Below are positions 6,657 through 47,265 of a DNA stretch of 64,000 nt, one piece after another. Position numbers and translations under genes: made by a program. Source of the DNA: Solirubrobacterales bacterium (GTDB lineage: Bacteria > Actinomycetota > Thermoleophilia > Solirubrobacterales > 70-9). The stretch's first letter is position 1, and every line of letters starts with the position of its first letter. The stretch lies in NCBI GenBank assembly GCA_036564135.1, contig DATCLC010000069.1, positions 1,529-65,528 on the forward strand, in the 5' to 3' direction. The notes below the pieces were generated by a model. That model was not told the origin of the DNA. It was given only the letters and a program-made list of their open reading frames with translations, and did not search any database.

Positions 6657-7657
6657 GCCGTCCTCCGCAGAAGCCACAGAAACAGCGGGACGCCCAGCAC
6701 GACCATGAACGGCCCGACGGGCAGCACGGTCGGGGCCGCCACGTTGCGGGCCAGCACGTCGCCGGCCGTAAGCAGCGCGGCGCCCGCCAGCGCCGAGGCG
6801 GGGATCACGAAGCTGTGGCTCGAGGTGCCCCCGGCCATGCGGACCAGGTGCGGGACGACCAGGCCGAGGAAGCTGAGCAGCCCGACCAGGGCCGCCGCCG
6901 CGGAGGCGAGCACGGCAGCGCAGATCCCCGCGCCCAGGCGGATCAGCTGCGGACGGCTGCCCAGCGAGGCCGCGACGTCGTCGCCGAGCGCGAGACGATC
7001 GAGCGGCCTGATCAGGACCAGGGCGAGCGCGAGCCCGACGACGAAGTACGGCCAAAACGACTCGAGGTCGATCCAGGCGTTCGGCGTGAGCCCGCCCGCC
7101 ATGAAGAAGACGACCGACTGGACGCGGTCCGGGAACGCCGTCATCAGACCGGTGGTGGCCGCGCCGAACAGGGCGGCGACGGCGATGCCGGCGAGGATCA
7201 CCTGGGTCACCCCGCCGCGGTTGCGCCCGGTCCACGCGATCGCGAAGACCACGGCCGCCGCGACCAAGCCGAACACCAGCGCGCCGACCGGCAGGAGCGC
7301 CACCGAGCCCGGGAAGGCCAAAAGGATAAGCGTGGCGCCGAACCCGGCGCCCGCGGTCACGCCGATCACGTCCGGCGAGGCGAGCGGATTGGCCAGCGCC
7401 CCCTGGAGCACGGCGCCGGCCACGCCCAGGGCCGCGCCCACGGCGACCGCCTCGACCGTGGTCGGCAGCCGGATGTCCATCACGATCTTGCGCTCGGGGC
7501 CATCGGCGAGGTCGCCGAACAGCGCGTCGATCACGGTGGCCAGCGGAATATCGACGGCCCCGATCGCAAGCGAGGCGCCCACGGCCGCAAGCAGCGCGAC
7601 GAGCGCGGCCACGATGACCGCGCTCCGGCGCGCGACTGTGGTGACCGTGAGCGCCAC
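6653..7657 (-). CDS. hmuU: FecCD-family heme/siderophore ABC permease
   Basis: 334 aa, polytopic, with typical FecCD/BtuC-like sequence (GAGICAAVLASAAAALVGLLSFLGLVVPHLVRMAGG). GTG start at 7657. Confidence 0.85.
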   Translation of the reverse strand: MALTVTTVARRSAVIVAALVALLAAVGASLAIGAVDIPLATVIDALFGDLADGPERKIVMDIRLPTTVEAVAVGAALGVAGAVLQGALANPLASPDVIGVTAGAGFGATLILLAFPGSVALLPVGALVFGLVAAAVVFAIAWTGRNRGGVTQVILAGIAVAALFGAATTGLMTAFPDRVQSVVFFMAGGLTPNAWIDLESFWPYFVVGLALALVLIRPLDRLALGDDVAASLGSRPQLIRLGAGICAAVLASAAAALVGLLSFLGLVVPHLVRMAGGTSSHSFVIPASALAGAALLTAGDVLARNVAAPTVLPVGPFMVVLGVPLFLWLLRRTA

Positions 7658-9367: not shown

Positions 9368-10287
9368 CGCGCCCTCGCGCCAACCAGCGTCGTCTTCACC
9401 GTCGTGTCGACCTCGGCGCCCGGGCCCGCGCCGACCCAGAGGTCGAACTTCACGGTTCCCTTCCTGCCGGCGAGCTTCTTGGCGACGCGCTTCGTGACCT
9501 GGACGACGATCTGCGCGCGCTTGCCGTCGCCGACCCGGTCGGGGGCCTTCACCTTGGCCTTGAACTGCCGCTTGCCGACCCGGATCTTCGTCCGCTTTGG
9601 AGCGGCGACCTCGCAGGGGCCGGTCTTGCAGCGCACCTTCGCGACCGCGGCCTTCGCACGCTTGCCGAGGCGCGCCTGCCCGACGACCTTGAGGCCGGGC
9701 GTCTCGCCGAACCCGGCCACTACCGAGACCGGGTCCATCGTCGTTTCGGCCGGGTAGCGGCCGAACACCGGCACGCCGTTCTCGGCGAGCGTCGCGGGAA
9801 TCGAGCTCCACTCGATCGTGGTCGGGCCGAACTCCGGATCGACCGCCTCGACATCCAGGTTCACGAGGTCCCGGTTGTCGTCGATCGGGTCGCCCCCGCC
9901 CATCGGCACGCTCTGCGCGTCCGCGTAGAGCTTGGCGCCCGTCGGCGCGAGCACCACGCGCGGGTTCGCGACGGTGATGTTGAGCGCTCCGCCATGGGCG
10001 AAGAAGTTGACCGAGCCGGTCGCCTGGACCTCGCCGAGCCCCGTCTCGGTGTCGAGGGTGCCGCTCGCGATCGGGAAGCGGTACGTGCCGTCCTCGTTCT
10101 CAGTCGCGCCGCCCGAGAGCGTGATCTCCCCCGCGCCGCCGATGTAGGTGCGGAAGCTCTCCTTCACGCCCCAGACGGCCCAACCGCCCTTCACCTCGAC
10201 GGTCTCGGCGCTCGCTGTCACGGCGAACGCGCCCCCCAGCGCCACGCTCGCCGCCGCGAGCATCGTCGTCCTCAGAAATGCTTTCAA
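9364..10287 (-). CDS. htaA: HtaA-domain heme-binding protein
   Basis: Signal peptide plus the canonical HtaA core GGWAVWGVKESFRTYIGG...GTYRFPIASG. TTG start 10287 preceded by AAGGAGGGA. Confidence 0.8.
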   Translation of the reverse strand: MKAFLRTTMLAAASVALGGAFAVTASAETVEVKGGWAVWGVKESFRTYIGGAGEITLSGGATENEDGTYRFPIASGTLDTETGLGEVQATGSVNFFAHGGALNITVANPRVVLAPTGAKLYADAQSVPMGGGDPIDDNRDLVNLDVEAVDPEFGPTTIEWSSIPATLAENGVPVFGRYPAETTMDPVSVVAGFGETPGLKVVGQARLGKRAKAAVAKVRCKTGPCEVAAPKRTKIRVGKRQFKAKVKAPDRVGDGKRAQIVVQVTKRVAKKLAGRKGTVKFDLWVGAGPGAEVDTTVKTTLVGARAR

Positions 10288-10351
10288 AAGCTTTGTCCCT
10301 CCTTAGCCGCCCCCGGACCAGGCCCGTGGGCTACCGAGTCGCGTAGCGGAA

Positions 10352-10379
10352 TTAGGGCGCCCTAATTAGGGCACCCTAA
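10352..10379. promoter_or_regulatory. tandem 14-bp palindromes, candidate metalloregulator operator of the heme operon
   Basis: TTAGGGCGCCCTAA (perfect palindrome, 10352-10365) is immediately followed by TTAGGGCACCCTAA (10366-10379), 65-92 nt upstream of the htaA start. The TTAGG/CCTAA arms resemble the outer arms of DtxR/IdeR iron boxes. Confidence 0.5.
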
Positions 10380-10459
10380 TCACGATACATTAATTCCGAC
10401 CTCGGCGCGGTGAATTAAAGTAGCAACGAGATTCATGGCTTGTTCAAGCGGTTCTCAGG

Positions 10460-10497
10460 CCAGAAAATTGTTTGCAGCGCGAAAGCTTCCGCAAACA
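10460..10497 (-). terminator. hairpin plus U-tract on the minus strand
   Basis: On the minus strand, TGTTTGC-N15-GCAAACA (10469-10497) is followed by ATTTTCT. It lies 170 nt downstream of the kinase stop and downstream of the degenerate 17-nt element copy e. Confidence 0.4.
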
Positions 10498-10555
10498 GCC
10501 ACCGTCCCGAGGGAGGCTGGCCCCTTTTAGATAGGCCGAACGGATCCGCCCCACC

Positions 10556-10572
10556 TCCGTAGTTCGGGCGGA
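10556..10572. promoter_or_regulatory. degenerate copy (e) of the 17-nt TCCG-N3-CCA-CTACGGA element
   Basis: Minus-strand reading is TCCGCCC GAA CTACGGA. The right half is perfect and the left half retains only TCCG. Confidence 0.3.
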
Positions 10573-35930: not shown

Positions 35931-36349
35931 CCGCTGGGAATGGGGGCGGCGCCGGGCCCACCGTGGACGTGGGCCCGGCTGCCGAGCTTGAACCCGGGCA
36001 GATGGTCCCCGCGCAACTGGGCGACCTGCCGGTGGTGGTGATCCGCGACGGCGAGGGCGAGCTGCACGCCTACGTCGATCGCTGCCTGCACCAGGGCGCG
36101 CGGCTCTCGGACGGCCGGATGGTGCCGTGCGTCGACGGCGCGGTGGTCGGCGACTACCGCGAGGTCGAGGGCCCCGCGCTCAAGTGCCCCTGGCACGGCT
36201 ACGAGTACGACGTCAAGACCGGCTGCGTCTCGTTCGACCCACGCCGCCGGCTGCGCAAGGTCGCCGTCGCCGAGACCGACGGCCGCATCGTGATCGCGCG
36301 CCGCAAGGAAGACCTCCCCGCGGCCGCGCCGACCGGCGCCGCGGGCTAG
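35927..36349 (+). CDS. Rieske [2Fe-2S] domain protein
   Basis: GTGA overlap with the amidohydrolase stop. Cluster ligand motifs CLHQG and CPWHGYEY. ORF-track entry 35459..36349 trimmed. Confidence 0.8.
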   Translation: MTAGNGGGAGPTVDVGPAAELEPGQMVPAQLGDLPVVVIRDGEGELHAYVDRCLHQGARLSDGRMVPCVDGAVVGDYREVEGPALKCPWHGYEYDVKTGCVSFDPRRRLRKVAVAETDGRIVIARRKEDLPAAAPTGAAG

Positions 36350-36365
36350 GGGGTCCGCGCACCAC

Positions 36366-36405
36366 AGGGGCGCCGGCGCCGGGGCGGGTTTGCGCCGGCG
36401 CCCCT
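36366..36405 (+). terminator. perfect 14-bp GC hairpin after the Rieske gene
   Basis: AGGGGCGCCGGCGC ... GCGCCGGCGCCCCT. No T-tract. Confidence 0.5.
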
Positions 36406-36480
36406 CCGCGGACGCACGTCGTTAACCTCGGCTGCACCACCTCTGCTGGAGGGGTCCGCCCTCCCCACCAACGGCGGATC

Positions 36481-36497
36481 CGCTCCCACTACGGATG
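36481..36497. promoter_or_regulatory. 17-nt element copy a
   Basis: TCCGCTC CCA CTACGGA. A TACAAT -10-like hexamer lies at 36519-36524, and the mini-ORF ATG is at 36554. Confidence 0.55.
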
Positions 36498-36553
36498 GCG
36501 GAACGCCGTCCGCGAATACAATCGGTCGTGTTCGCAGAAGGGAGGTGTCAGCG

Positions 36554-36667
36554 ATGTCAGCTGTAGTTGCCAGCACCGATCAGACGCAGGTGCAGACGAG
36601 CGACTGGTACGCGCATCCTGGCGTCGAGGGCTCAGCGAGCAGGTCGCCGCAGGAGGGCGGCCGGTGA
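36554..36667 (+). CDS. 37-aa mini-ORF preceding the Zn-ribbon gene
   Basis: AAGGGAGGTG SD 7 nt upstream. MSAVVASTDQTQVQTSDWYAHPGVEGSASRSPQEGGR. GC3 is higher in this frame than in the alternative long frame. Its TGA overlaps the GTG of the next ORF (GTGA 36664-36667). Confidence 0.4.
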   Translation: MSAVVASTDQTQVQTSDWYAHPGVEGSASRSPQEGGR

Positions 36668-36888
36668 TCTCGCGGGTCTATTGCCCGCACTGCGCGAGGG
36701 CGACGGTCGCGGTGCGCGGAGTCCCCATCGCGGACCAATGCCCGCGGTGCCGGACGCCGCTCTTCGGATCCGAGCCCTCCCCGCCGCTGGATCTCCACAA
36801 GATCGAGACCCGGGTCCGCGAGCGGCTCTACCCGACGAGGCGCGGCCCGCGCACTGGGACCCGTTCGCGCTCCTTGGCGCGGCGCTGA
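36664..36888 (+). CDS. Zn-ribbon mini-protein (paralogue 1)
   Basis: 74 aa. AGGAGGG SD upstream. CPHC-x17-CPRC: VISRVYCPHCARATVAVRGVPIADQCPRCRTPLF. Basic tail. Confidence 0.4.
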   Translation: MISRVYCPHCARATVAVRGVPIADQCPRCRTPLFGSEPSPPLDLHKIETRVRERLYPTRRGPRTGTRSRSLARR

Positions 36889-36899
36889 GCGCGACCGCC

Positions 36900-36916
36900 T
36901 CCGTGGCGACTACGCA
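36900..36916. promoter_or_regulatory. 17-nt element copy g
   Basis: Plus strand reads TCCGTGG CGA CTACGCA. TAGCGT lies 45 nt downstream, and the ADH ATG lies 83 nt downstream. Confidence 0.5.
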
Positions 36917-36999
36917 GGCGGCTGCGCGGGCAGCCCGGTGGTGAGCCCGCGCTCGGCCACCTAGCGTCGAGGCGGGAAAAACAAGCCAAGGAGGCAGCG

Positions 37000-38052
37000 A
37001 TGCCGGAGACGATGAAGGCGTTCCGATTGATCGAGTGGGAACGCCCCCCTGAGCTCGTCGAGGTGCCGGTTCCCGATCCCGGCCCGGGGGAGGTAGTGCT
37101 CAAGGTCGGCGGCGCGGGTGCCTGCCACTCCGATCTGCACATCATGGAGTGGCCCGAGGGCCAGATGCCTTGGAAGACGCCCTTCACCCTCGGCCACGAG
37201 AACGCAGGCTGGGTCGCCAAGGTCGGCGCCGGGGTCGAGGGGTTCGCGGAAGGTGACGCCGTGATCGTGTACGGGCCGTGGGGCTGCGGCCAGTGCCGCG
37301 CCTGCCGGCTCTCCGAGGAGAACTACTGCGAGCGGCAGGATGAGATCGGGAGTCTCGGCGGCGGGCTCGGACTCGACGGCGGCATGGCCGAGTACATGCT
37401 TGTGCCCTCCCCCCGCCTGCTCGTCCCGCTAGGCGACCTCGACCCACGCGACGCCGCGCCGCTCACCGACGCGGCGCTCACTCCGTACCACGCGATCAAG
37501 CGATCGCTGCACCTGCTCGTGCCGGGCTCGACGGCCGTCGTGATCGGCGTCGGGGGGCTCGGTCATTTGGCCGTGCAGATCCTGAAGGCGCTTTCCGGTG
37601 CGCGCATCGTGGCGGTGGACCTGGCAGCTGACAAGCGCGAGCTCGCGCGCGAGGCCGGCGCGGACGAAGCGTTCGAACCCGGCGACGAGGCGATCGAGGC
37701 CGTCCGCGAGCTCACCGGCGGCCGAGGGGCCGAGCTGGTGCTCGACATGGTCGGTGCCGGCCAGACGATCGCGCTCGCGCAGCAGGTCGCCCGGGTGAAG
37801 GGCGACCTCACGCTGGTCGGGCTCGGCGGGGGGTCGCTCGAGTACGGCTGGTTCACCATGCCGTACGAGTGCGAGGTGGCCTCCACGTACTGGGGCAGCG
37901 GGATCGAGCTGATGGAGGTCCTCGACCTCGCGCGCTCCGGGGCGATCCGCGTGGAGCAGGAGCGCGCCTCCCTCGACGACGCCGCGGAAACCTACGAGCG
38001 CCTGAGCCGCGGCGAGATCCGCGGGCGCGCGGTGGTCTGCCCGAACGGCTGA
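37000..38052 (+). CDS. zinc-dependent NAD(P) alcohol dehydrogenase
   Basis: GACHSDLH, GHENAGWV, structural-Zn motif GCGQCRACRLSEENYC, Rossmann VIGVGGLGHLAVQ. Confidence 0.9.
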   Translation: MPETMKAFRLIEWERPPELVEVPVPDPGPGEVVLKVGGAGACHSDLHIMEWPEGQMPWKTPFTLGHENAGWVAKVGAGVEGFAEGDAVIVYGPWGCGQCRACRLSEENYCERQDEIGSLGGGLGLDGGMAEYMLVPSPRLLVPLGDLDPRDAAPLTDAALTPYHAIKRSLHLLVPGSTAVVIGVGGLGHLAVQILKALSGARIVAVDLAADKRELAREAGADEAFEPGDEAIEAVRELTGGRGAELVLDMVGAGQTIALAQQVARVKGDLTLVGLGGGSLEYGWFTMPYECEVASTYWGSGIELMEVLDLARSGAIRVEQERASLDDAAETYERLSRGEIRGRAVVCPNG

Positions 38053-38101
38053 GACCCCGGGAGGCGGCGCACTTCATCCCCGCCCACACACACCCGCCGA
38101 G

Positions 38102-38138
38102 CGTGCGATTCCGTTGCGATGGGCAACGTTCTCGCACG
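38102..38138. terminator. nested hairpin in the convergent spacer between the ADH and PpsA-like genes
   Basis: CGTGCGA-TTCC-GTTGC-GATGG-GCAAC-GTTC-TCGCACG. Confidence 0.35.
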
Positions 38139-38220
38139 GCCGGTGGGGGTGAGCTGGCGCTCGGTAAAAGACACCGCGCCACGGCGAGGCCCGGCGCATC
38201 TGCGCGGGGCGCGCCGGGCT

Positions 38221-40536
38221 TCAGCTCGCCCGCGAGGCCTCGAGCAGCCGCCTGCGCTCGGCGGCGGCGACCAGCCGCCTGGCGCGGTCGACGGCGTCCA
38301 GGTTCACGGAGATCGCGTCGATGCCGGCGTCCACCAGGATGTCCGCGTACTCCGGGTAGACCGAGGGCGCCTGCCCGCAGATCGACGTGCGCAAGCCGAG
38401 CGCCCGCGCCTTGGGGATCAGCTGGCGCAGGTACGCGACGACCGCGGGATCGCGCTCGTCGAAGACCTCGGCGACGAGCTCGGAGTCGCGGTCGGCCCCG
38501 AGGAGGAGCTGGGTCAGGTCATTGGACCCGATCGAGATCCCGGCGATCCCGAGCTCCGCGTAGCGCTCCAGGTTGAAGAGCACCGTCGGGACCTCGGCCA
38601 TCACCCACAGCTCGAAGCCGCGGCGCCGCCCGAGCCCGACGTCGTCGATCATGCGCTTGCACGCCTCGATCTCCTCGGCGACGCGGACGAAGGGCAGCAT
38701 CACGTGCAGGTTGCGGTGGCCGCGCCGCCAGACCTGATCCAGGGCCCGCAGCTCGAGCTCGAACAGATCGGGCTCATGCCGGTAGCGAAGCGCCCCGCGG
38801 TAGCCGATCATCGGGTTCGCCTCGACCGGCTCGAAGCGCTCGCCGCCCTCAAGGTTGCGGAACTCGTTGGAGCGGAAGTCGATCGTCCGGTAGGTGACCG
38901 GCCTGGGCGCGAGGGCCTCCGCAAACGCGGTGAGCGCGTCCGCGAGCCGGTCCACGACCTCGTCGGCCCTCCCCTCCTCGAGCAGCAGGCGGGGGTGCCT
39001 GCCCTCCAGGACCTCCACGATCATGAGCTCGGCGCGCAAGAGCCCCACGCCGTCGACGTCCAGGTCGGCCACGCGCTCGAGCTGGGAGGGCTCCGAGAGG
39101 TTCGCGAGCAGGCGCGTGCCCGTGACCGGTGCCGCGCGCTCGGTGACCGCGGGCGGCGGCGCGACCGCCGGCTCCGCCGACAGCGCCCCGCGCGCCACAA
39201 GTCCCGCGCCGGCATCGACCGTGACCAGCTCGCCGTCCTGGATCGCCGCGGTGGCGTCGTGCGTGCCGACCAAGCACGGAATGCCGAGCTCGCGCGACAC
39301 GATCGCCGCATGGCAAGTCATGCCGCCGGAGTCGGTCACGATCGCCGCGGCGCGGCGCATGAGCGGCACCCAGTCGGGCGCGGTCATCCGGGCGACGAGG
39401 ACCTCCCCGTCTCCCAGGCGCGCGCCTTCGTCAAGGCTCTCGATGAGGCGCGCCACGCCGCTCGCGCGCCCGGGTGCGGCGCCGAGGCCGCGCGCGAGCA
39501 CCTCGAGCTCGCCCTCGCCCTCGGGGGCGGGCGGCTCCGCCTCCCCCGCGAGCGTCGTGACGGGCCGTGACTGCAGCATCCAGACCTTGCCGGCGGCGTC
39601 GATCGCCCACTCGGTGTCCTGCGGGGCGCCGTAGTGCGCTTCCAGGGCGCGCCCGAAGCGCGCGAGCTCTATCGCTTGCGCGTCGCTGATGGCCGCCTCC
39701 CTAGAGGCCTCCCCGGCGAGCGACACGGTTCGCGTGCCTCCGCCCGGCAGGGGCTCGACCGCCACCTCCTTCTCGCGGATCTCGCGGGCGAGGATCTCGA
39801 GGTCGGCCTTGCGGACGACGAACCGGTCCGGCGAGACCGAGCCCGAGACCACGGCCTCCCCGAGTCCTCGCGAGCCCTCGATCACGAGCTCACCCCGGTC
39901 CCCCGTCGCCGGGTTCACGGTGAACATCACCCCGGAGGCCATCGCATCGACCTGCGCCTGGACGACGACCGCGATGTCCATCAGGACCGGGTCGAAGCCG
40001 CGCTTCGCGCGGTAGTAGATCGAGCGCGCGCCGAACAGCGACGCCCAGCAGTCCCGGACGGCCGCCAGGACGCCGTCGGGGCCGCGCACGTTGAGGAAGG
40101 TCTCGTTCATACCCGCGAAGGAGGCCGACGCCGTGTCCTCGGCCGTGGCCGACGAGCGGACCGCGACCGGCAGCTCGGCCGCCTCGTCGAGCGCCCGGTA
40201 CCGGGCCTCGATCGCGTCCGCGATGCCCGGCGGGATCTCGGCGCCCTCCACGAGCTCGCGCGCAGCCTTGGCGGCCGATCGCAGGGCCTCCGTGTCGTCC
40301 ACGTCGAGCCCGCCCAGCACCGCGGCGAGCTGCTCGCGGATGCCGGACTCGTCGCGGAACGTCGCGTACGCGGGCGCCCCGACGACGAACCCCGGGGGAA
40401 CGGGCATGCCGGCGCGGATCATCTCGCCGAGGTTCGCTCCCTTGCCGCCCGCGTAGGCCACGTCGCCGGCACCCAGCTCGCCCAGCTCGCGGACCGCGGG
40501 CGAGGATGCAGCGGTTCGCTCGCCTCGCGAGCTCAC
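38221..40536 (-). CDS. ppsA: phosphoenolpyruvate synthase / pyruvate,water dikinase-like enzyme
   Basis: GGKGANLGEM, phospho-His motif GGMTCHAAIVSRELGIPCLVG, and ISIGSNDLTQLLLG. ORF-track entry 38221..40782 trimmed to GTG 40536 (GTGA overlap with the upstream membrane ORF). Confidence 0.85.
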   Translation of the reverse strand: MSSRGERTAASSPAVRELGELGAGDVAYAGGKGANLGEMIRAGMPVPPGFVVGAPAYATFRDESGIREQLAAVLGGLDVDDTEALRSAAKAARELVEGAEIPPGIADAIEARYRALDEAAELPVAVRSSATAEDTASASFAGMNETFLNVRGPDGVLAAVRDCWASLFGARSIYYRAKRGFDPVLMDIAVVVQAQVDAMASGVMFTVNPATGDRGELVIEGSRGLGEAVVSGSVSPDRFVVRKADLEILAREIREKEVAVEPLPGGGTRTVSLAGEASREAAISDAQAIELARFGRALEAHYGAPQDTEWAIDAAGKVWMLQSRPVTTLAGEAEPPAPEGEGELEVLARGLGAAPGRASGVARLIESLDEGARLGDGEVLVARMTAPDWVPLMRRAAAIVTDSGGMTCHAAIVSRELGIPCLVGTHDATAAIQDGELVTVDAGAGLVARGALSAEPAVAPPPAVTERAAPVTGTRLLANLSEPSQLERVADLDVDGVGLLRAELMIVEVLEGRHPRLLLEEGRADEVVDRLADALTAFAEALAPRPVTYRTIDFRSNEFRNLEGGERFEPVEANPMIGYRGALRYRHEPDLFELELRALDQVWRRGHRNLHVMLPFVRVAEEIEACKRMIDDVGLGRRRGFELWVMAEVPTVLFNLERYAELGIAGISIGSNDLTQLLLGADRDSELVAEVFDERDPAVVAYLRQLIPKARALGLRTSICGQAPSVYPEYADILVDAGIDAISVNLDAVDRARRLVAAAERRRLLEASRAS

Positions 40537-40862
40537 CCTCGATGCTGCCCGTCTGGCCGCCTGTGCACGGCGGCGCGGATCCCGAAACCGACCGTGGCGA
40601 TCGCCAGTGCGGCGACGATGGTCGCGAGGGTCACGAGGGCCGGGCTCACCAGGATCGCCGCCGCTGCGAGGAGCAGCACCGCCAGCGCCGCGAAGAGAAG
40701 AGCGAGCTCGATAGCGCGCACCAGCATCCGGTGCCGGCGCTCGAGCGAGCCGAGCTCGGGGACCGACGCCCGTTGCGGCCAAGCAGCCATCGAGGTCGAT
40801 CGTAGGTCGCGAAAACCGCCCGTTTGCAGCACTTCTCTCACCACGCCCCGGTCAGCCCTCAC
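40533..40862 (-). CDS. small two-TM membrane protein
   Basis: LVRAIELALLFAALAVLLLAAAAILV and ALVTLATIVAALAIATVGFGI. The start is uncertain (ATG 40862, 40790 or 40727). Confidence 0.5.
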   Translation of the reverse strand: MRADRGVVREVLQTGGFRDLRSTSMAAWPQRASVPELGSLERRHRMLVRAIELALLFAALAVLLLAAAAILVSPALVTLATIVAALAIATVGFGIRAAVHRRPDGQHRG

Positions 40863-41709
40863 CCCAGCCGCGCGGAATCACCAGGACCGGGCACGGGGCG
40901 GTCCGCGCGACAGCGGCCGAGACGCTCCCAAGAAGCGCGCGGCGGATCGGTCCGTACCCGCGCGAGCCCAGCACCAGAAGGTCGAGCTCCACGCCCCGTG
41001 CGGCAAGCGCCGCGGCCGGATCACCCTCAAGCAGCGCGGTGCTCACCTCGAACTCGCAGTCGATCTCCTCGGCGGCCCGAGCGAGCGCCTCCTCGAGCCG
41101 CTCGCGCATCGCCACCTCAACGTCCGCGGCGGTCCCCGCCCAAACCGGGGGTACGGACGGGATCGGCGGCACGACGCCGATCAGCTCCAGCTCCGCGTCC
41201 AGGGCCTTGGCGAAGTGCCTTGCGGACGCGAGCGCCGTCCGGCTTTCCGGCGAGCCGTCGTAGCCCACGCCCACCAGTCCCAGCCCGGGGCGCTCGGGCG
41301 CGTAACCGCGCGGGACGACGACCACCGGGCACGGCGCGCCGTTCAGCAGACGGTCGGCGACGCTACCGGGGTAGACGCGGCCCAGCCGCCCGCGGTGGGT
41401 CGACCCCACCACGATCAGATCCGCTTCCTCATGCTCCGCGCGATCGTTGAGTGCCCGCGCGGGCGAGCCGTCGCTGACGGGCCGGCGCTCGAAGGGCGTT
41501 TCGCCGAGAACTTGCGCCGCGCGCTCGAAGATCTCGTCGAAGTGCTCCTCCAGGGCGCGCTCGTAGGCGTCGACCGCGATCGGCAGGGGCGCGTAGTCGA
41601 GCGCCGCCACCACGTGGAGCTGGGCGCCCTCGATCGCCGCGAGCTCACGGGCGAAGCGCAGGGCGTCGTCGCCGTTCTCCCGCCCGTCGTATCCGACCAG
41701 GATCCTCAT
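40852..41709 (-). CDS. tandem universal stress protein (two UspA domains)
   Basis: 285 aa. Two repeats, each ending in the ATP-binding-type motif (GSTHRGRLGRVYPGSVADRLL...PVVVVP and GSRGYGPIRRALLGSVSAAVA...PVLVIP). Confidence 0.9.
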   Translation of the reverse strand: MRILVGYDGRENGDDALRFARELAAIEGAQLHVVAALDYAPLPIAVDAYERALEEHFDEIFERAAQVLGETPFERRPVSDGSPARALNDRAEHEEADLIVVGSTHRGRLGRVYPGSVADRLLNGAPCPVVVVPRGYAPERPGLGLVGVGYDGSPESRTALASARHFAKALDAELELIGVVPPIPSVPPVWAGTAADVEVAMRERLEEALARAAEEIDCEFEVSTALLEGDPAAALAARGVELDLLVLGSRGYGPIRRALLGSVSAAVARTAPCPVLVIPRGWGEG

Positions 41710-41924
41710 CTCAGGCTCCCGGGCCTCGACCTGCGCCGCGGCTCACCCGCGGGCGCGGGCCGTGGCGCGGCCTCCCGGCGGCGCCACGCGATCTCGACGG
41801 CGGCGCGCTCCACGACTCGCGCCTGGGCGAGCGGGCGACCGCAGTTCGCGCAATGGTCGAGGTCGGCCCAGCCGGTGATCGCGAACGTGTCCTCCCCGCA
41901 GTGGGGGCAACGGACGAGAGGCAT
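41706..41924 (-). CDS. Zn-ribbon mini-protein (paralogue 2)
   Basis: 72 aa. MPLVRCPHCGEDTFAITGWADLDHCANCGRPL. GAGGG SD upstream. ATGA overlap with the USP start. ORF-track entry 41706..42149 trimmed to ATG 41924. Confidence 0.5.
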   Translation of the reverse strand: MPLVRCPHCGEDTFAITGWADLDHCANCGRPLAQARVVERAAVEIAWRRREAAPRPAPAGEPRRRSRPGSLR

Positions 41925-41932
41925 GGCAACCC

Positions 41933-42118
41933 TCAGAGCCGTCCACGGCCGGCCGGGCCGCCCCGACCGTCCTTGGGAACTCCCAAGCTCACAGGCCCCG
42001 GATCTTCTGCCGCGCATTCGCCGTGCCCGTGCGACGGGATCGCGAACCCGAGCGCGATCAGCACGGCGGCGAGCCCGACTGCGATCTGTGCCATCGAAAG
42101 GAACTCCATGACCGCCAT
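41933..42118 (-). CDS. possible 61-aa single-TM protein
   Basis: MAVMEFLSMAQIAVGLAAVLIALGFAIPSHGHGEC... Its stop lies 8 nt before the Zn-ribbon ATG. Weak SD. Confidence 0.3.
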   Translation of the reverse strand: MAVMEFLSMAQIAVGLAAVLIALGFAIPSHGHGECAAEDPGPVSLGVPKDGRGGPAGRGRL

Positions 42119-42172
42119 CGAGCCTCGCAGCCGGGCGGGCTTTCTCCATCCGTGCGGGATCCGCGACTCGCC

Positions 42173-42189
42173 TCCGTGGTGGCTACGGG
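42173..42189. promoter_or_regulatory. 17-nt element copy f
   Basis: Plus strand reads TCCGTGG TGG CTACGGG. TACCTT lies 46 nt downstream, and the CBS ATG lies 87 nt downstream. Confidence 0.5.
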
Positions 42190-42276
42190 GTCGGATAGGG
42201 CATCACCGCCCGATGTAGGCGGCGCCCCTCCCCCGTACCTTCGCGGTGAAACCCCCAAGACCAAGGAGCGTCGCCG

Positions 42277-42708
42277 ATGACGGACACAAGCCTCAAGAGC
42301 CGCGGGAGCTACCGCACCCCGTCCTACGAACACGCGACCGTTGGCGACGCCATGCGCCTCGGCGTTATCTCGTGCCCCGCGGAGACGCCGCTACGGCAGG
42401 TGGCGCGCATGATGGCGACCGAGCACATCCACTGCGTGGTCGTCATGCAGGATCGCGGCTGGGGAGTGGTCACCGACAGCGACCTGATCCGCGCCGCGGA
42501 GGGCGACCTGGACACGACCACCGCGGGCGAGGTGGCCGGCAGCGCCATCCCGAGGCTCACCCCCGGCGACCCTCTCGACCGAGCCGCGCGGCTCATGGTC
42601 GAGCACGAGGTGTCGCATGTGCTCGTGGTCGACGGGACCACCGGGCACGCCACCGGGGTGCTCTCGACGCTCGATGTGGCTGGCGTGCTGGCGTGGGGTG
42701 AGGCTTGA
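42277..42708 (+). CDS. CBS-domain pair protein
   Basis: 143 aa with two CBS-like repeats (ATVGDAMRLGVISCPAETPLRQVARMMATEHIHCVVV ... LDRAARLMVEHEVSHVLVV). Confidence 0.85.
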   Translation: MTDTSLKSRGSYRTPSYEHATVGDAMRLGVISCPAETPLRQVARMMATEHIHCVVVMQDRGWGVVTDSDLIRAAEGDLDTTTAGEVAGSAIPRLTPGDPLDRAARLMVEHEVSHVLVVDGTTGHATGVLSTLDVAGVLAWGEA

Positions 42709-42866
42709 GATTGGTCGCCGGTCGCCGGTCGCCAGTCACCGGTTGCTTGGGAGGAAGCGTCCGGCTGCAGCACAGCCGTTTCAAACTTCGACAGCCCACC
42801 ACGGACGGCGAGGCCCGAGGCGCCCAGCCGGCGATCTGCGACTGGGAGCGGCGACCCCTACGCGCA

Positions 42867-42883
42867 TCCGTAGCCACTACGGA
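42867..42883. promoter_or_regulatory. 17-nt element copy b (perfect palindrome) plus extra half-site
   Basis: TCCGTAG CCA CTACGGA. An additional CTACGGA lies at 42890-42896. TAACTT lies 46 nt downstream. The RR ATG is at 42985. Confidence 0.6.
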
Positions 42884-42984
42884 TCCCCGCTACGGAGCGA
42901 GGCACGAAACGAACCGTGACCGCCGCAACTAACTTCAAGCGTTATGGTGCGTGCGCTGCAGGCGGAGAGGAGCTAGGGGCAGCG

Positions 42985-43629
42985 ATGGCTGCTGACGGCG
43001 AGTCGACGATCACGGTCATCCTGGCCGACGACCACGCGATCGTCCGCGACGGAATCCGGATGATCCTCGAGTCCGAGCCGGATATCGAGGTGGTCGCCGA
43101 GGTTGGCGACGCCGAAGGCGCGCGCCGGCGCACCTCGGGCCTCAAGCCCGATGTCCTCGTCCTCGACCTCAACATGCCCGACGGCTCGAGCCTGCCGATG
43201 ATCCCGGCGATCCTCGAGGGCTCCCCCAACACGGCGATCATCGCGCTCACGATGCAGGAGGACCCGTCGTTCGCCCGCGAGGCGTTCCGCCTCGGCGCGA
43301 AGGGCTACGTAGTGAAGCGATCCGCGGGCAAGGAGCTGATCCAGGCGATCCGCGAGGTACTGAACGGCGGCAGCTACATCAACCCGCAGCTCGGCGCCAA
43401 GGTGGCCGCCGAGCCCGAGGGTCCGCCGGGCGGCCTCACCCAGCGCGAGGCCGAGGTCTTGGCATTGATCGCTCAGGGCTACACCAACCCCGAGATCGCC
43501 GAGCAGCTGGTGCTGAGCGTGCGCACGGTCGAGACGCATCGCTCGGCGATCCACCGCAAGGTCGGGACCACCAACCGGGCGGCGCTGGTGCGGTTCGCCC
43601 GCGAGCACGGGCTCGTCGACGACCTCTAG
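42985..43629 (+). CDS. NarL/LuxR-family response regulator (DevR/DosR-like architecture)
   Basis: ATG 42985 is preceded by GGAGAGGAG. Receiver ILADDHAIVRDGI...DVLVLDLNMPDGS; HTH LTQREAEVLALIAQGYTNPEIAEQLVLSVRTVETHRSAIHRKVG. Confidence 0.9.
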   Translation: MAADGESTITVILADDHAIVRDGIRMILESEPDIEVVAEVGDAEGARRRTSGLKPDVLVLDLNMPDGSSLPMIPAILEGSPNTAIIALTMQEDPSFAREAFRLGAKGYVVKRSAGKELIQAIREVLNGGSYINPQLGAKVAAEPEGPPGGLTQREAEVLALIAQGYTNPEIAEQLVLSVRTVETHRSAIHRKVGTTNRAALVRFAREHGLVDDL

Positions 43630-43630
43630 G

Positions 43631-45920
<2,290 letters not shown>

Positions 45921-45955
45921 CGTTGACCTCGTGCGACGGGCTCGGCTCGTGACCG

Positions 45956-46156
45956 TTAGTCCAGGACGAAGGTCACCTTCAGGTCGACGCGGAAGCCGGA
46001 GATCTGGCCGTCCTCGACGAGGACCTTCTGCTCCTTGACCCAGGCGCCCTGGATCCCGCGTACCGTCTCCGACGCCTTGGCGATGCCCTGCTTGATCGCG
46101 TCCTCGAAGCTCTCCTCCGAGGTCGCCGTGATCTCAATGACCTTTGCGACCGCCAT
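45956..46156 (-). CDS. dodecin (flavin-binding)
   Basis: 66 aa. MAVAKVIEITATSEESFEDAIKQGIAKASETVRGIQGAWVKEQKVLVEDGQISGFRVDLKVTFVLD. AAGGAGGA SD upstream. ORF-track entry trimmed to ATG 46156. Confidence 0.85.
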   Translation of the reverse strand: MAVAKVIEITATSEESFEDAIKQGIAKASETVRGIQGAWVKEQKVLVEDGQISGFRVDLKVTFVLD

Positions 46157-46239
46157 CGCGATCCTCCTTCGTAGGGATTTGATGCCGATGCTCACCAACG
46201 ACCGCGACGACGACATCGGTACGGGCGGCCGGTCCTGAG

Positions 46240-46256
46240 TCCGGGCTCACTACGGA
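46240..46256. promoter_or_regulatory. 17-nt element copy c
   Basis: TCCGGGC TCA CTACGGA, 83 nt upstream of the dodecin ATG (minus strand). Confidence 0.5.
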
Positions 46257-46430
46257 CCCCCGGCTGCTCGGGCCGGTCAGCGCCGAGGCTTCGGTGTGCG
46301 GATGATCGAGCCGAGTACCCGCCTGGGGCGGTCGCAACCGGGCGCGTGCGTCGGAGCGATGGGTAGATCCCAGGGTCGTCAGCGAAGACCACGTTCGCTT
46401 GGCCGCGGTCCGGTCGGTAGCCGTCGGGCC

Positions 46431-46447
46431 TCCGTAGTGGCGACGGA
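46431..46447. promoter_or_regulatory. 17-nt element copy d
   Basis: Plus strand reads TCCGTAG TGG CGACGGA. TACGGT lies 45 nt downstream, and the hsp20 ATG lies 87 nt downstream. Confidence 0.55.
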
Positions 46448-46534
46448 TGGAATCCCCGAGTCGCGGCGGATGGAGCGGCGCGATGGCGGGCGTACGGTCG
46501 GAGTGCAGAGAAAGCGATCAGAGGAGGTGCCGAG

Positions 46535-46993
46535 ATGGCAGCGACCCTCACGCCCGCAAGCCCCTTCGCTGAGCTTGGGGAGCTGCGCGAGCGGATCGAC
46601 CGCGCGTTCGGGGACCTGTTCCAGGATCTCACCGACGGTGGGCGCCGCACGTGGCGGCTCTCGGTCGATGTCGTGGAGGAGGACGACCGGTACGTGGTGC
46701 TGGCCGACGCGCCGGGCATGGGCCCCGATGACGTGACGATCGAGGTGAAGGACAACGTCCTCACCGTCTCCGGCGAGCACAGCGAGAGCGAGGAGGAGAA
46801 GAAGCGCAACTACGTCCGCCGCGAGCGGCGGTGGGGCGCCTTCTCGCGCTCGATGACGCTGCCGCCGGGCGTCGACGCCGACGACGTCAAGGCGACGTTC
46901 GAAGACGGCGTGCTCGAGATCTCGATCCCCAAGCCCAAGGTCGAGGAGCCCGAGACGAAGCGGATCGAGATCAGCCGGAAGTCGGGGAGCTGA
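46535..46993 (+). CDS. Hsp20/alpha-crystallin family small heat-shock protein
   Basis: 152 aa. Alpha-crystallin domain VDVVEEDDRYVVLADAPGMGPDDVTIEVKDNVLTVSGEH ... GVLEISIPKP. GAGGAGG SD upstream. Confidence 0.9.
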   Translation: MAATLTPASPFAELGELRERIDRAFGDLFQDLTDGGRRTWRLSVDVVEEDDRYVVLADAPGMGPDDVTIEVKDNVLTVSGEHSESEEEKKRNYVRRERRWGAFSRSMTLPPGVDADDVKATFEDGVLEISIPKPKVEEPETKRIEISRKSGS

Positions 46994-47026
46994 CCTCTCC
47001 TCCTCCCGTCCCGCGCCGGCACAAGC

Positions 47027-47065
47027 GAGGCGGATTTGTCCCCAGATACGGGACAAATCCGCCTC
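47027..47065 (+). terminator. perfect 16-bp hairpin after hsp20
   Basis: GAGGCGGATTTGTCCC-cagatac-GGGACAAATCCGCCTC followed by TTCCCTCCC. Confidence 0.6.
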
Positions 47066-47115
47066 TTCCCTCCCGTCAACGCGCGAGGGCCCCTCGCGGA
47101 GCCCTCGCTTTGAAG

Positions 47116-47189
47116 TCGGGGCGACTGGATTTGAACCAGCGACCTTTCGGCCCCCAGCCGAATGCGCTACCAGACTGCGCCACGCCCCG
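47116..47189 (-). tRNA. tRNA-Pro (GGG)
   Basis: Minus-strand cloverleaf: CGGGGCG TG GCGC AGTCTGGTA GCGC A TTCGG CTGGGGG CCGAA AGGTC GCTGG TTCAAAT CCAGT CGCCCCG A. No encoded CCA. Confidence 0.9.
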
Positions 47190-47265
47190 AATTCAGTTGT
47201 CCGGGCCCCGCTTCGGGCGGTGCCCGTTGACACTCATGATGCCGTATTTCGGCCCTTTCGTGTCA

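Follow-up and report, generated by a model that had tools for sequence, protein, structure and literature searches.

A palindromic box held at fixed distances from the -10 hexamer around a DevS/DosT-like two-component system in a Solirubrobacterales actinobacterium

Introduction

Among described systems, the locus reported here most resembles the DevR/DosR-DevS/DosT system of Mycobacterium tuberculosis. In this organism, every DevR promoter carries two to four tandem Dev boxes and none carries a single one, DevR binding the conserved box first and then its weak neighbours in a cooperative manner (PMC3177182). At tgs1-Rv3131, 3 bp separate the boxes, which are placed at -42.5 and -63.5, and inserting half a helical turn abolishes weak-site binding and most of the activity, showing that same-face phasing matters (PMC3177182). 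The Dev box itself is an 18-20 bp palindrome of the GGGACT..AGTCCC type with an essential G5 and C7 in each half (PMC3177182, in part). Here, a 17-bp palindromic element, TCCGTAG-N3-CTACGGA (7-3-7), was analyzed in 64,000 nucleotides of contig DATCLC010000069.1 (positions 1,529 to 65,528, forward strand; assembly GCA_036564135.1), assigned to a Solirubrobacterales bacterium and referred to below as the window. This element is probably the DNA box of a response regulator (RR; 42985-43629, + strand) paired with a DevS/DosT-like kinase, and would be used in two promoter designs, both built around a box at about -42/-43.

Like DevR/DosR with DevS/DosT, the pair consists of a NarL-family regulator, with a receiver domain and a GerE/LuxR helix-turn-helix (HTH), and a kinase with a haem-type GAF-A domain and a HisKA_3 core. 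The likeness extends to apparent autoregulation, to divergent promoters sharing boxes, to targets encoding Hsp20/alpha-crystallin, universal stress proteins (USP) and a CBS protein, and to palindromic strong and weak boxes in tandem with the proximal one near -42.5, the positions being predicted here. We take the M. tuberculosis counterparts of these targets to be hspX, Rv2623-type USPs and Rv2626c. Unlike the DevR system, however, the box is not of the GGGACT..AGTCCC type, the centre-to-centre distance is 23-24 bp instead of 21 bp and thus out of helical phase, one class of promoters appears to have a single box, and the host is an uncultured Thermoleophilia/Solirubrobacterales-like actinobacterium.

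A DevR-like regulator governing stress/dormancy-type genes also occurs outside mycobacteria, namely OsdR of Streptomyces coelicolor, whose regulon is reported to overlap that of DevR (PMC5069765). The promoters of the window further resemble class II activation by FNR/CRP, with a box near -41.5, in that a dimeric box abuts the -35 position and no -35 consensus is present; unlike CRP/FNR, the protein belongs to another family and most promoters carry a presumably obligatory upstream helper box. NarL 7-2-7 sites are inverted heptamers comparable to this 7-3-7 box, whose half-site sequence differs and whose spacer is 3 bp instead of 2 bp. As for OsdR, it reportedly recognizes a DevR-like box, unlike the regulator described here. 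The literature search returned no paper describing this box or a DosR-type system in Thermoleophilia.

Results and discussion

A palindrome at fixed distances from the -10 hexamer

When the window (72% G+C) was searched for TCCGTAG-N3-CTACGGA with up to three mismatches, nine matches were obtained where 2.1 were expected, and 100 shuffles all stayed below nine. Six of the nine matches fall in a 10-kb stress-gene island (36.4-47.0 kb) and were named copies a, g, f, b, c and d. The other three (6664, 10556 and 58521, three mismatches each) fit the chance expectation of about two, none has the promoter geometry described below, and they were discarded. The full consensus is approximately CATCCGTAG-N3-CTACGGATG, the CA and TG flanks accompanying many distal boxes. 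An Rfam scan of 36000-47200 returned a tRNA only, and the element matches no known RNA family.

Copy a, TCCGCTCCCACTACGGA followed by TG (36479..36497, core 36479-36495, + strand, with CGGATG at 36492-36497), occupies a promoter-proximal, class II position. Copy g, TCCGTGGCGACTACGCA (36900..36916, +), is the distal box of the alcohol dehydrogenase (ADH) promoter, 45 nt from TAGCGT, and copy f, TCCGTGGTGGCTACGGG (42173..42189, no strand), is a distal box common to two divergent promoters. Copy b, TCCGTAGCCACTACGGA (42867..42883, +), is a perfect palindrome upstream of the regulator gene. Finally, copy c (46240..46256, -, reading TCCGTAGTGAGCCCGGA on that strand) and copy d, TCCGTAGTGGCGACGGA (46431..46447, +), are the distal boxes for dodecin and hsp20, respectively.

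A sequence-only reading of the region had placed TANNNT hexamers 45-46 nt beyond the edge of four copies, and its coordinates proved correct: the hexamers start at 36962, 42236, 42930 and 46493, i.e., 45, 46, 46 and 45 nt from copies g, f, b and d. TANNNT occurs 53 times in the window (21 on the + strand and 32 on the - strand), so that the probability of finding it at two given offsets on 4 of 12 element sides is about 2e-10, or about 2e-6 if a 10-fold intergenic enrichment is allowed. The distinct geometry pointed out for copy a, with TACAAT at 36517 and a gap of 21 nt, was likewise borne out. Copy c has GAGCAT, not TANNNT, at a gap of 46 nt. Because TA-containing hexamers are very rare, the combination of box, spacing and TANNNT would be a highly specific predictor for hypoxia/stress genes in metagenomes. 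Many of the 53 hexamers are intergenic, and the hexamer alone is usable as a -10 predictor in this genome.

The same spacing was found in relatives, which comprise a metagenome-assembled genome with a regulator 96% identical (L001) and contigs with regulators 80-89% identical (L081-L087). Judged from the relatives of its regulator, the organism belongs to the Thermoleophilia/Solirubrobacterales. The boxes orthologous to copy d (L001 4917, L081 7939) have a gap of 46 nt, as have both the regulator and hsp20 promoters of L081. In L084, a shared box has gaps of 46 and 45 nt to its two sides, and the USP promoter has one of 45 nt; in L086, the hsp20 gap is 46 nt and that of the opposite side 22 nt. 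Upstream of the regulator gene, TANNNT at a gap of 46 nt is kept in L001, L081 and L084. The shorter gap of 21-22 nt seen with copy a recurs at L081 2933 and 6786, L082 1111 and L086 13493R, and in 12 metagenome contigs.

Independent metagenome contigs were then scanned for a perfect palindrome followed by TANNNT 18-48 nt away, giving 31 possible gap slots. On contigs with at least 62% G+C (n = 28), 23 of 33 gaps fell within 20-22 nt (10) or 45-47 nt (13), which together make up 6 of the 31 slots (binomial P = 5e-10), whereas palindrome sites on low-GC contigs (n = 93), taken as chance background, gave a flat distribution. Over 59 pooled sites with up to three mismatches, gaps of 45, 46, 22 and 21 nt were found 12, 11, 9 and 4 times, and any other gap three times at most. 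As had been proposed, the phasing, which is conserved across genomes, looks functional and points to an activator-type site.

In relatives, many start codons trail TANNNT by 5-9 nt, which argues that the hexamer is a true -10 box. Such leaderless genes encode USP (L183 and L186; tandem), a NarL-type RR (L184), DUF1918 (L107), chorismate synthase (L131) and ATP-dependent DNA ligase (L094, L127); leaderless arrangements are common in actinobacteria. Since many target genes of relatives are leaderless and the spacing is kept, the conserved quantity is the distance from the element to the -10 box. The gaps to the start codon noted earlier, 83 nt for ADH (ATG 37000), 87 nt for the CBS protein (ATG 42277), 87 nt for hsp20 (ATG 46535) and 83 nt for dodecin (ATG 46156, -), are exact. 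Their constancy is incidental, a by-product of the similar leaders (25-30 nt) in the window, and copy b lies 101 nt from its start codon.

With the -10 hexamer set at -12..-7, from which all start coordinates below were predicted, the element would be centred at about -66/-67 for gaps of 45-46 nt and at about -42/-43 for gaps of 21-22 nt; the centre of -55 to -60 first suggested is thus too close to the start. The idea that the less-conserved half faces the gene did not hold either, since the halves of copies g and f carry one mismatch each and the better half is the promoter-proximal one at L084 7728 and L086 13493.

Two proposed promoter designs around a common proximal box

Twenty-seven promoters with the longer gap (class 46) were aligned on their -10 boxes. 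Between the element and the -10 box, conservation is confined to the columns at -26..-21 from the first base of the hexamer. They read C-(C/G)-G-A-T-G (CSGATG), with 20 nt separating them from the element on one side and from the -10 box on the other. Thirteen of the 27 promoters match this motif exactly, the background being 9e-4 per position (P about 1e-32), and the columns upstream of it weakly track the palindrome (T/C at -39, G at -36, A at -34). In promoters with the shorter gap (class 22), the same columns hold the CGGA end of the palindrome plus TG. Besides, two complete palindromes lie 24 bp apart in L132, each 22 nt from an outward-facing -10 box, and 25 bp apart in L135. Taken together, the conserved CSGATG, its alignment with class 22 and the tandem palindromes indicate that class-46 promoters are tandem, with a strong distal and a weak proximal box. 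The common denominator of all these promoters would then be a box at about -42/-43.

A search of the window for CSGATG-N20-nAnnnT yielded two extra promoters. In addition to g, f-right, b and d, class 46 includes c and f-left, which show the same layout with GAnnnT -10 boxes, and copy a is the window's member of class 22. The four phased promoters initially listed stand, but the list was incomplete, with GAGCAT at a gap of 46 nt for copy c and a second, leftward promoter at copy f. L001 and L081 retain the element, CSGATG and the -10 box at their hsp20, dodecin, f-left and RR promoters, with diverged spacers in between.

According to the proposed mechanism, dimers of the phosphorylated regulator would activate promoters having a -10 box (TANNNT or GAnnnT) but no usable -35 box, by occupying a box centred at about -42/-43 that abuts the -35 position. 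In class 22 (copy a), a good palindrome would lie directly at this position, 21-22 nt from the -10 box. In class 46, the box at -42/-43 would be degenerate, and a strong palindrome 23-24 bp upstream, centred at about -66/-67, would act as a cooperative anchor loading the weak proximal box, in the manner of the primary and secondary Dev boxes of M. tuberculosis.

The nearest competitor is a single class I activator site acting from a fixed upstream position by direct contact with RNA polymerase through the alpha C-terminal domain, copy a being a separate repressive or class II site. Indeed, the distal palindrome alone is a strong motif and lies at a fixed 45-46 nt from the -10 box, and promoters b and L081-RR have no clear proximal motif. 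However, CSGATG stands at -26..-21 in 13 of 27 promoters, coinciding with the end of the class-22 palindrome, L132 and L135 have full tandem palindromes, and a centre at -66/-67 does not coincide with the faces usual for class I sites (-61.5 and -71.5 for CRP-type activators), which makes this scheme unlikely. Of the upstream site first proposed, the fixed position is retained, and lone action appears unlikely given the degenerate second box ending in CSGATG in class 46. As for copy a, for which both a repressive and a class II role had been considered, the class II role fits, whereas repression is improbable since its transcript is found in the same metatranscriptomes as those of the targets and its promoter has no -35 box of its own.

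CSGATG could alternatively serve a dedicated alternative sigma factor as its -35 element. The palindrome would then be enhancer-like in class 46, whereas in class 22 it would overlap this -35 element and compete with sigma, i.e., be repressive. In favour of this, the hexamer occupies about -38..-33, its TG is in register with that of TTGACA when the spacer is 17 bp, and the T and G fall outside the 17-bp core palindrome. Yet the -10 box is a standard, housekeeping-type TANNNT, the CA/TG flank also stands beside distal boxes (CATCCGTAG...CTACGGATG), where no sigma contact is expected, a weak palindrome-like signal precedes CSGATG, and the copy-a transcript accompanies those of other targets in the same metatranscriptomes. 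We consider such a sigma factor quite unlikely.

The regulator, its kinase and the predicted regulon

The regulator is a NarL/LuxR-type protein (Pfam Response_reg 1.4e-21, GerE 4.8e-19) whose best match among solved structures is M. tuberculosis DevR (3c3w, E 1.2e-31). The kinase gene next to it (43631-45358, -) encodes a DevS/DosT-type protein with the Pfam architecture GAF-GAF-HisKA_3-HATPase (HATPase_c). Its GAF-A domain matches DosT (2vzw, E 1.5e-50) and DevS (2w3d, E 4.5e-49) with about 60% identity and keeps the HHP and LYLT motifs, which hold the proximal His149 and the distal Tyr171 of DevS. Through this predicted haem domain, the kinase probably senses O2, NO, CO or the redox state.

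Several lines of evidence designate this regulator as the likely binder: a perfect box precedes its gene, the palindrome suits a dimer of GerE-type HTH domains, the scanned open reading frames (ORFs) of the island yielded no further regulator gene, and the proteins match DevR, DosT and DevS. The perfect palindrome stands upstream of the RR gene in the window, L001, L081-L083 and L184, the last having a regulator of a second subfamily. The recognition helix reads VRTVETHRS against EKTVKNYVS in DevR, and the base-contacting K179, K182 and N183 of DosR are replaced by R, E and T, changes that fit a different DNA word.

Another transcription factor encoded elsewhere in the genome might instead bind the palindrome, the two-component neighbourhood being coincidental or co-regulated. 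Only 64 kb of this genome are visible, and regulators 70-76% identical with the same recognition helix have no exact box nearby. Nevertheless, such a binder is very unlikely, in view of the perfect box ahead of the regulator gene in five genomes, L184 among them, of a target set (Hsp20, USP, CBS) fitting a DosR-type regulon, and of a six-box island centred on the two-component system. Finally, constant spacing as a relic of duplicated promoter cassettes of shared ancestry, suggested by several promoters with the same layout in one 10-kb island, has hardly any chance of being right, as inter-motif spacers are dissimilar between promoters, the same spacing occurs upstream of unrelated genes on unrelated contigs, and orthologous promoters keep their motifs while spacers diverge; a duplicated cassette or a mobile repeat was rejected on account of the unrelated spacers.

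We thus return to the regulator as binder. In the window, its regulon would comprise Hsp20 (46535-46993, +), the CBS-pair protein (42277-42708, +), tandem USP and phosphoenolpyruvate (PEP) synthase in a leftward operon, zinc alcohol dehydrogenase (37000-38052, +), dodecin (46156-45956, -) with DUF2267 (45920-45483, -), two small ORFs (36554-36667, 37 amino acids, and 36667-36888, 73 amino acids, Zn-ribbon-like; both +) and the regulator itself, autoregulated through copy b. The leftward operon (42109 to 38221, -) consists of a small transmembrane ORF (ATG 42109), a 72-amino-acid ORF, the tandem USP gene (41709-40852), a membrane ORF and PEP synthase. This content (Hsp20, USP-domain proteins, a CBS protein and the own regulator) matches the DosR type, and the genes found by Pfam downstream of the element in relatives and metagenome contigs were USP (twice), RR and DUF1918. 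Judged from its sequence, the system resembles gas or redox sensors of the DevRS/DosRST type, with its DNA specificity rewritten. Because the Dev box sequence, a defining feature, is absent, we regard it as a regulon of the DosR kind and not as a DosR regulon in the strict sense.

For widespread uncultured soil/compost actinobacteria, this amounts to a regulon model in which box, two promoter designs, sensor and targets are named. It would also imply that the DosR-style logic, in which a strong box loads a weak one beside the -35 position, is older and broader than mycobacteria, despite the changed DNA word. For a specialist, the finding is expected in kind and opens no long-standing question. 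A bolder version, which we hold to be rather unlikely, is that a DevS/DosT-type haem kinase was re-partnered in Thermoleophilia with a regulator of completely rewritten DNA specificity, whose two dimers sit 24 bp apart and about 100 degrees out of phase, the TG after the box being a joint regulator/sigma contact that replaces the -35 box. If true, out-of-phase dimers would imply a higher-order complex unlike the in-phase DevR tetramer, e.g., DNA wrapping or a DNA-twisting dimer-dimer interface.

Near regulators with 35-76% identity (L002-L080, L088-L090), the exact palindrome was not found, and only variants such as TCAGTAG (L005, L014) and ACCACTGATG (L090) were seen, so that these genomes contributed little to the footprints. 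In L089 and L090 (about 9500-9640), the genes of regulators about 71% identical are located behind an apolipoprotein-like gene, the promoter of which has diverged variants at class-22 spacing (TCCGTGGGGAACACGTA; ACCACTGATG-N20-GACACT). There, the box seems to drift while the geometry stays.

Predicted starts and RNA contig ends

Near-identical transcripts were available as assembled contigs from five metatranscriptomes (manure and phyllosphere). Their ends are compatible with most predicted starts, although they are not a start-site map. At their resolution, they do not contradict a constant position of the element relative to the starts, and elements a, g, f and d are never covered. The copy-a promoter (TACAAT 36517..36522, +; predicted start about 36529) would drive the two small ORFs; contigs from four metatranscriptomes begin at 36538, 36540, 36542 and 36554, i.e., 9-25 nt after the predicted start, and nothing lies upstream. 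At hsp20, a degenerate box (46454-46470, CCCCGAGTCGCGGCGGA) whose end is CGGATG (46467..46472, +) is followed by TACGGT (46493..46498, +; predicted start about 46505). Contigs begin at 46512, 46517, 46519 and 46520, 7-15 nt past the predicted start, in four runs in which 46296-46511 is uncovered, and at 46530 in the fifth run (X26). To the right of the island, contigs are sparser and mostly partial, which gives weak support to a contrast in expression between the island and its flank.

The CBS promoter (f-right) has a degenerate box at about 42197-42213 with the end CCGATG (42210..42215, +), then TACCTT (42236..42241, +; predicted start about 42248); contigs begin at 42272, 42281, 42304 and 42352, and 42111-42258 has zero cover in four runs. 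On the other side of copy f, the f-left promoter (42121..42152, -) consists of CGGATG (42152-42147), N20 and the -10 box GAGGCT (42126-42121) at a gap of 46 nt. Its predicted start is about 42114, contigs end at 42104 and 42096, and the layout is kept in L001 and L081. For ADH, the promoter alignment gives a proximal-box remnant CCGGTG (36935..36940, +), one mismatch from CCGATG and shifted by 1 nt, and the -10 box TAGCGT (36962..36967, +; predicted start about 36974). The stretch 36846-37000 is free of RNA contigs and one run starts at 37013, which lends this start weak support.

The dodecin promoter (46188..46219, -) is made of CCGATG (46219-46214), N20 and the -10 box GAGCAT (46193-46188) at a gap of 46 nt, with a predicted start at about 46181, to be compared with an X22 contig that ends at 46167. 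Both CCGATG and GAGCAT are conserved in L081, the spacers having diverged. The L081 ortholog of copy c (6786-6802) also serves a rightward gene, NadA (quinolinate synthase), with a gap of 22 nt to TACCTT; NadA lies between dodecin and hsp20 in L081. Since NadA is missing from this place in the window, copy c appears to have lost its rightward promoter. A box-like GTGCGGATG occurs at 46297-46305, close to dodecin contig ends.

The RR promoter carries a weak proximal box, TACGGAGCGAGGCACGA (42891..42907, +; 7 of 14 core positions, no CSGATG), and the -10 box TAACTT (42930..42935, +; predicted start about 42942). In this promoter, the block ACGAAACGA is kept in L001. TATGGT at 42943 fits the RNA ends slightly better as -10 box, but was rejected because, unlike the hexamer 46 nt from the element, it is not conserved, reading CATGGT in L001 and GATGGT in L081 and L084. 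Between the promoter and the regulator gene, a 10-codon ORF (MVRALQAERS*, 42944-42976, +) starts 8 nt after TAACTT, in a leaderless arrangement, and ends 8 nt before the regulator ATG; the ATGGTG at its start is kept in L001, L081 and L084. As a putative leaderless upstream ORF, it may control translation of the regulator.

A number of observations weigh against the proposed model. The proximal boxes of b and L081-RR do not contain CSGATG. A centre-to-centre distance of 24 bp corresponds to 2.3 helical turns and places the boxes on different helix faces, and the TG after CGGA could instead be part of a -35 hexamer (nTGnnn, 17-bp spacer). The regulators of L088-L090, 70-76% identical and with the same recognition helix, are accompanied by diverged boxes only. 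What the analysis shows is the sequence architecture with its conservation and statistics, the gene families and compatible RNA boundaries; the identity of the binder, the cooperativity and the activating effect are inferred. As regards RNA, the contigs are strandless and of low depth, with a resolution of about 10-30 nt. Those of the RR gene start at 42971 and 42976, about 30 nt past the predicted start, and one contig (42705-42980) reads through the element from the CBS gene, so that the RR start is the least well supported of the predicted starts. At dodecin, X23 and X25 contigs reach 46294 and 46295, 40 nt beyond copy c, which suggests a start further upstream, read-through or a wrong P1 assignment.

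Further features of the window

The kinase gene has a -10 box of its own, TACCGT (45402-45397, -), with no palindrome box upstream. Directly downstream of it, an imperfect inverted repeat, TTGTCCCACTTGCGACAA (45380-45397), spans the predicted start and could be an operator or a 5' hairpin. In the leftward operon, TACGAT (40804-40799, -) is separated by 8 nt from the downstream start codon (ATG 40790) of the small membrane ORF ahead of PEP synthase and looks like an internal leaderless promoter, with neither box nor CSGATG. The right-hand edge of the island is marked by a tRNA gene (47116-47189, -; Rfam 64.5 bits) just downstream of hsp20. Finally, a low-GC patch at 10340-10560 contains repeated palindromes, CCCTAATTAGGG (about 10350-10390), several TANNNT hexamers and a box-like CCTCCGTAGTTCGGGCGGA (10553-10572). 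This patch has the look of an operator cluster of its own or of foreign DNA, with no relation to the island.

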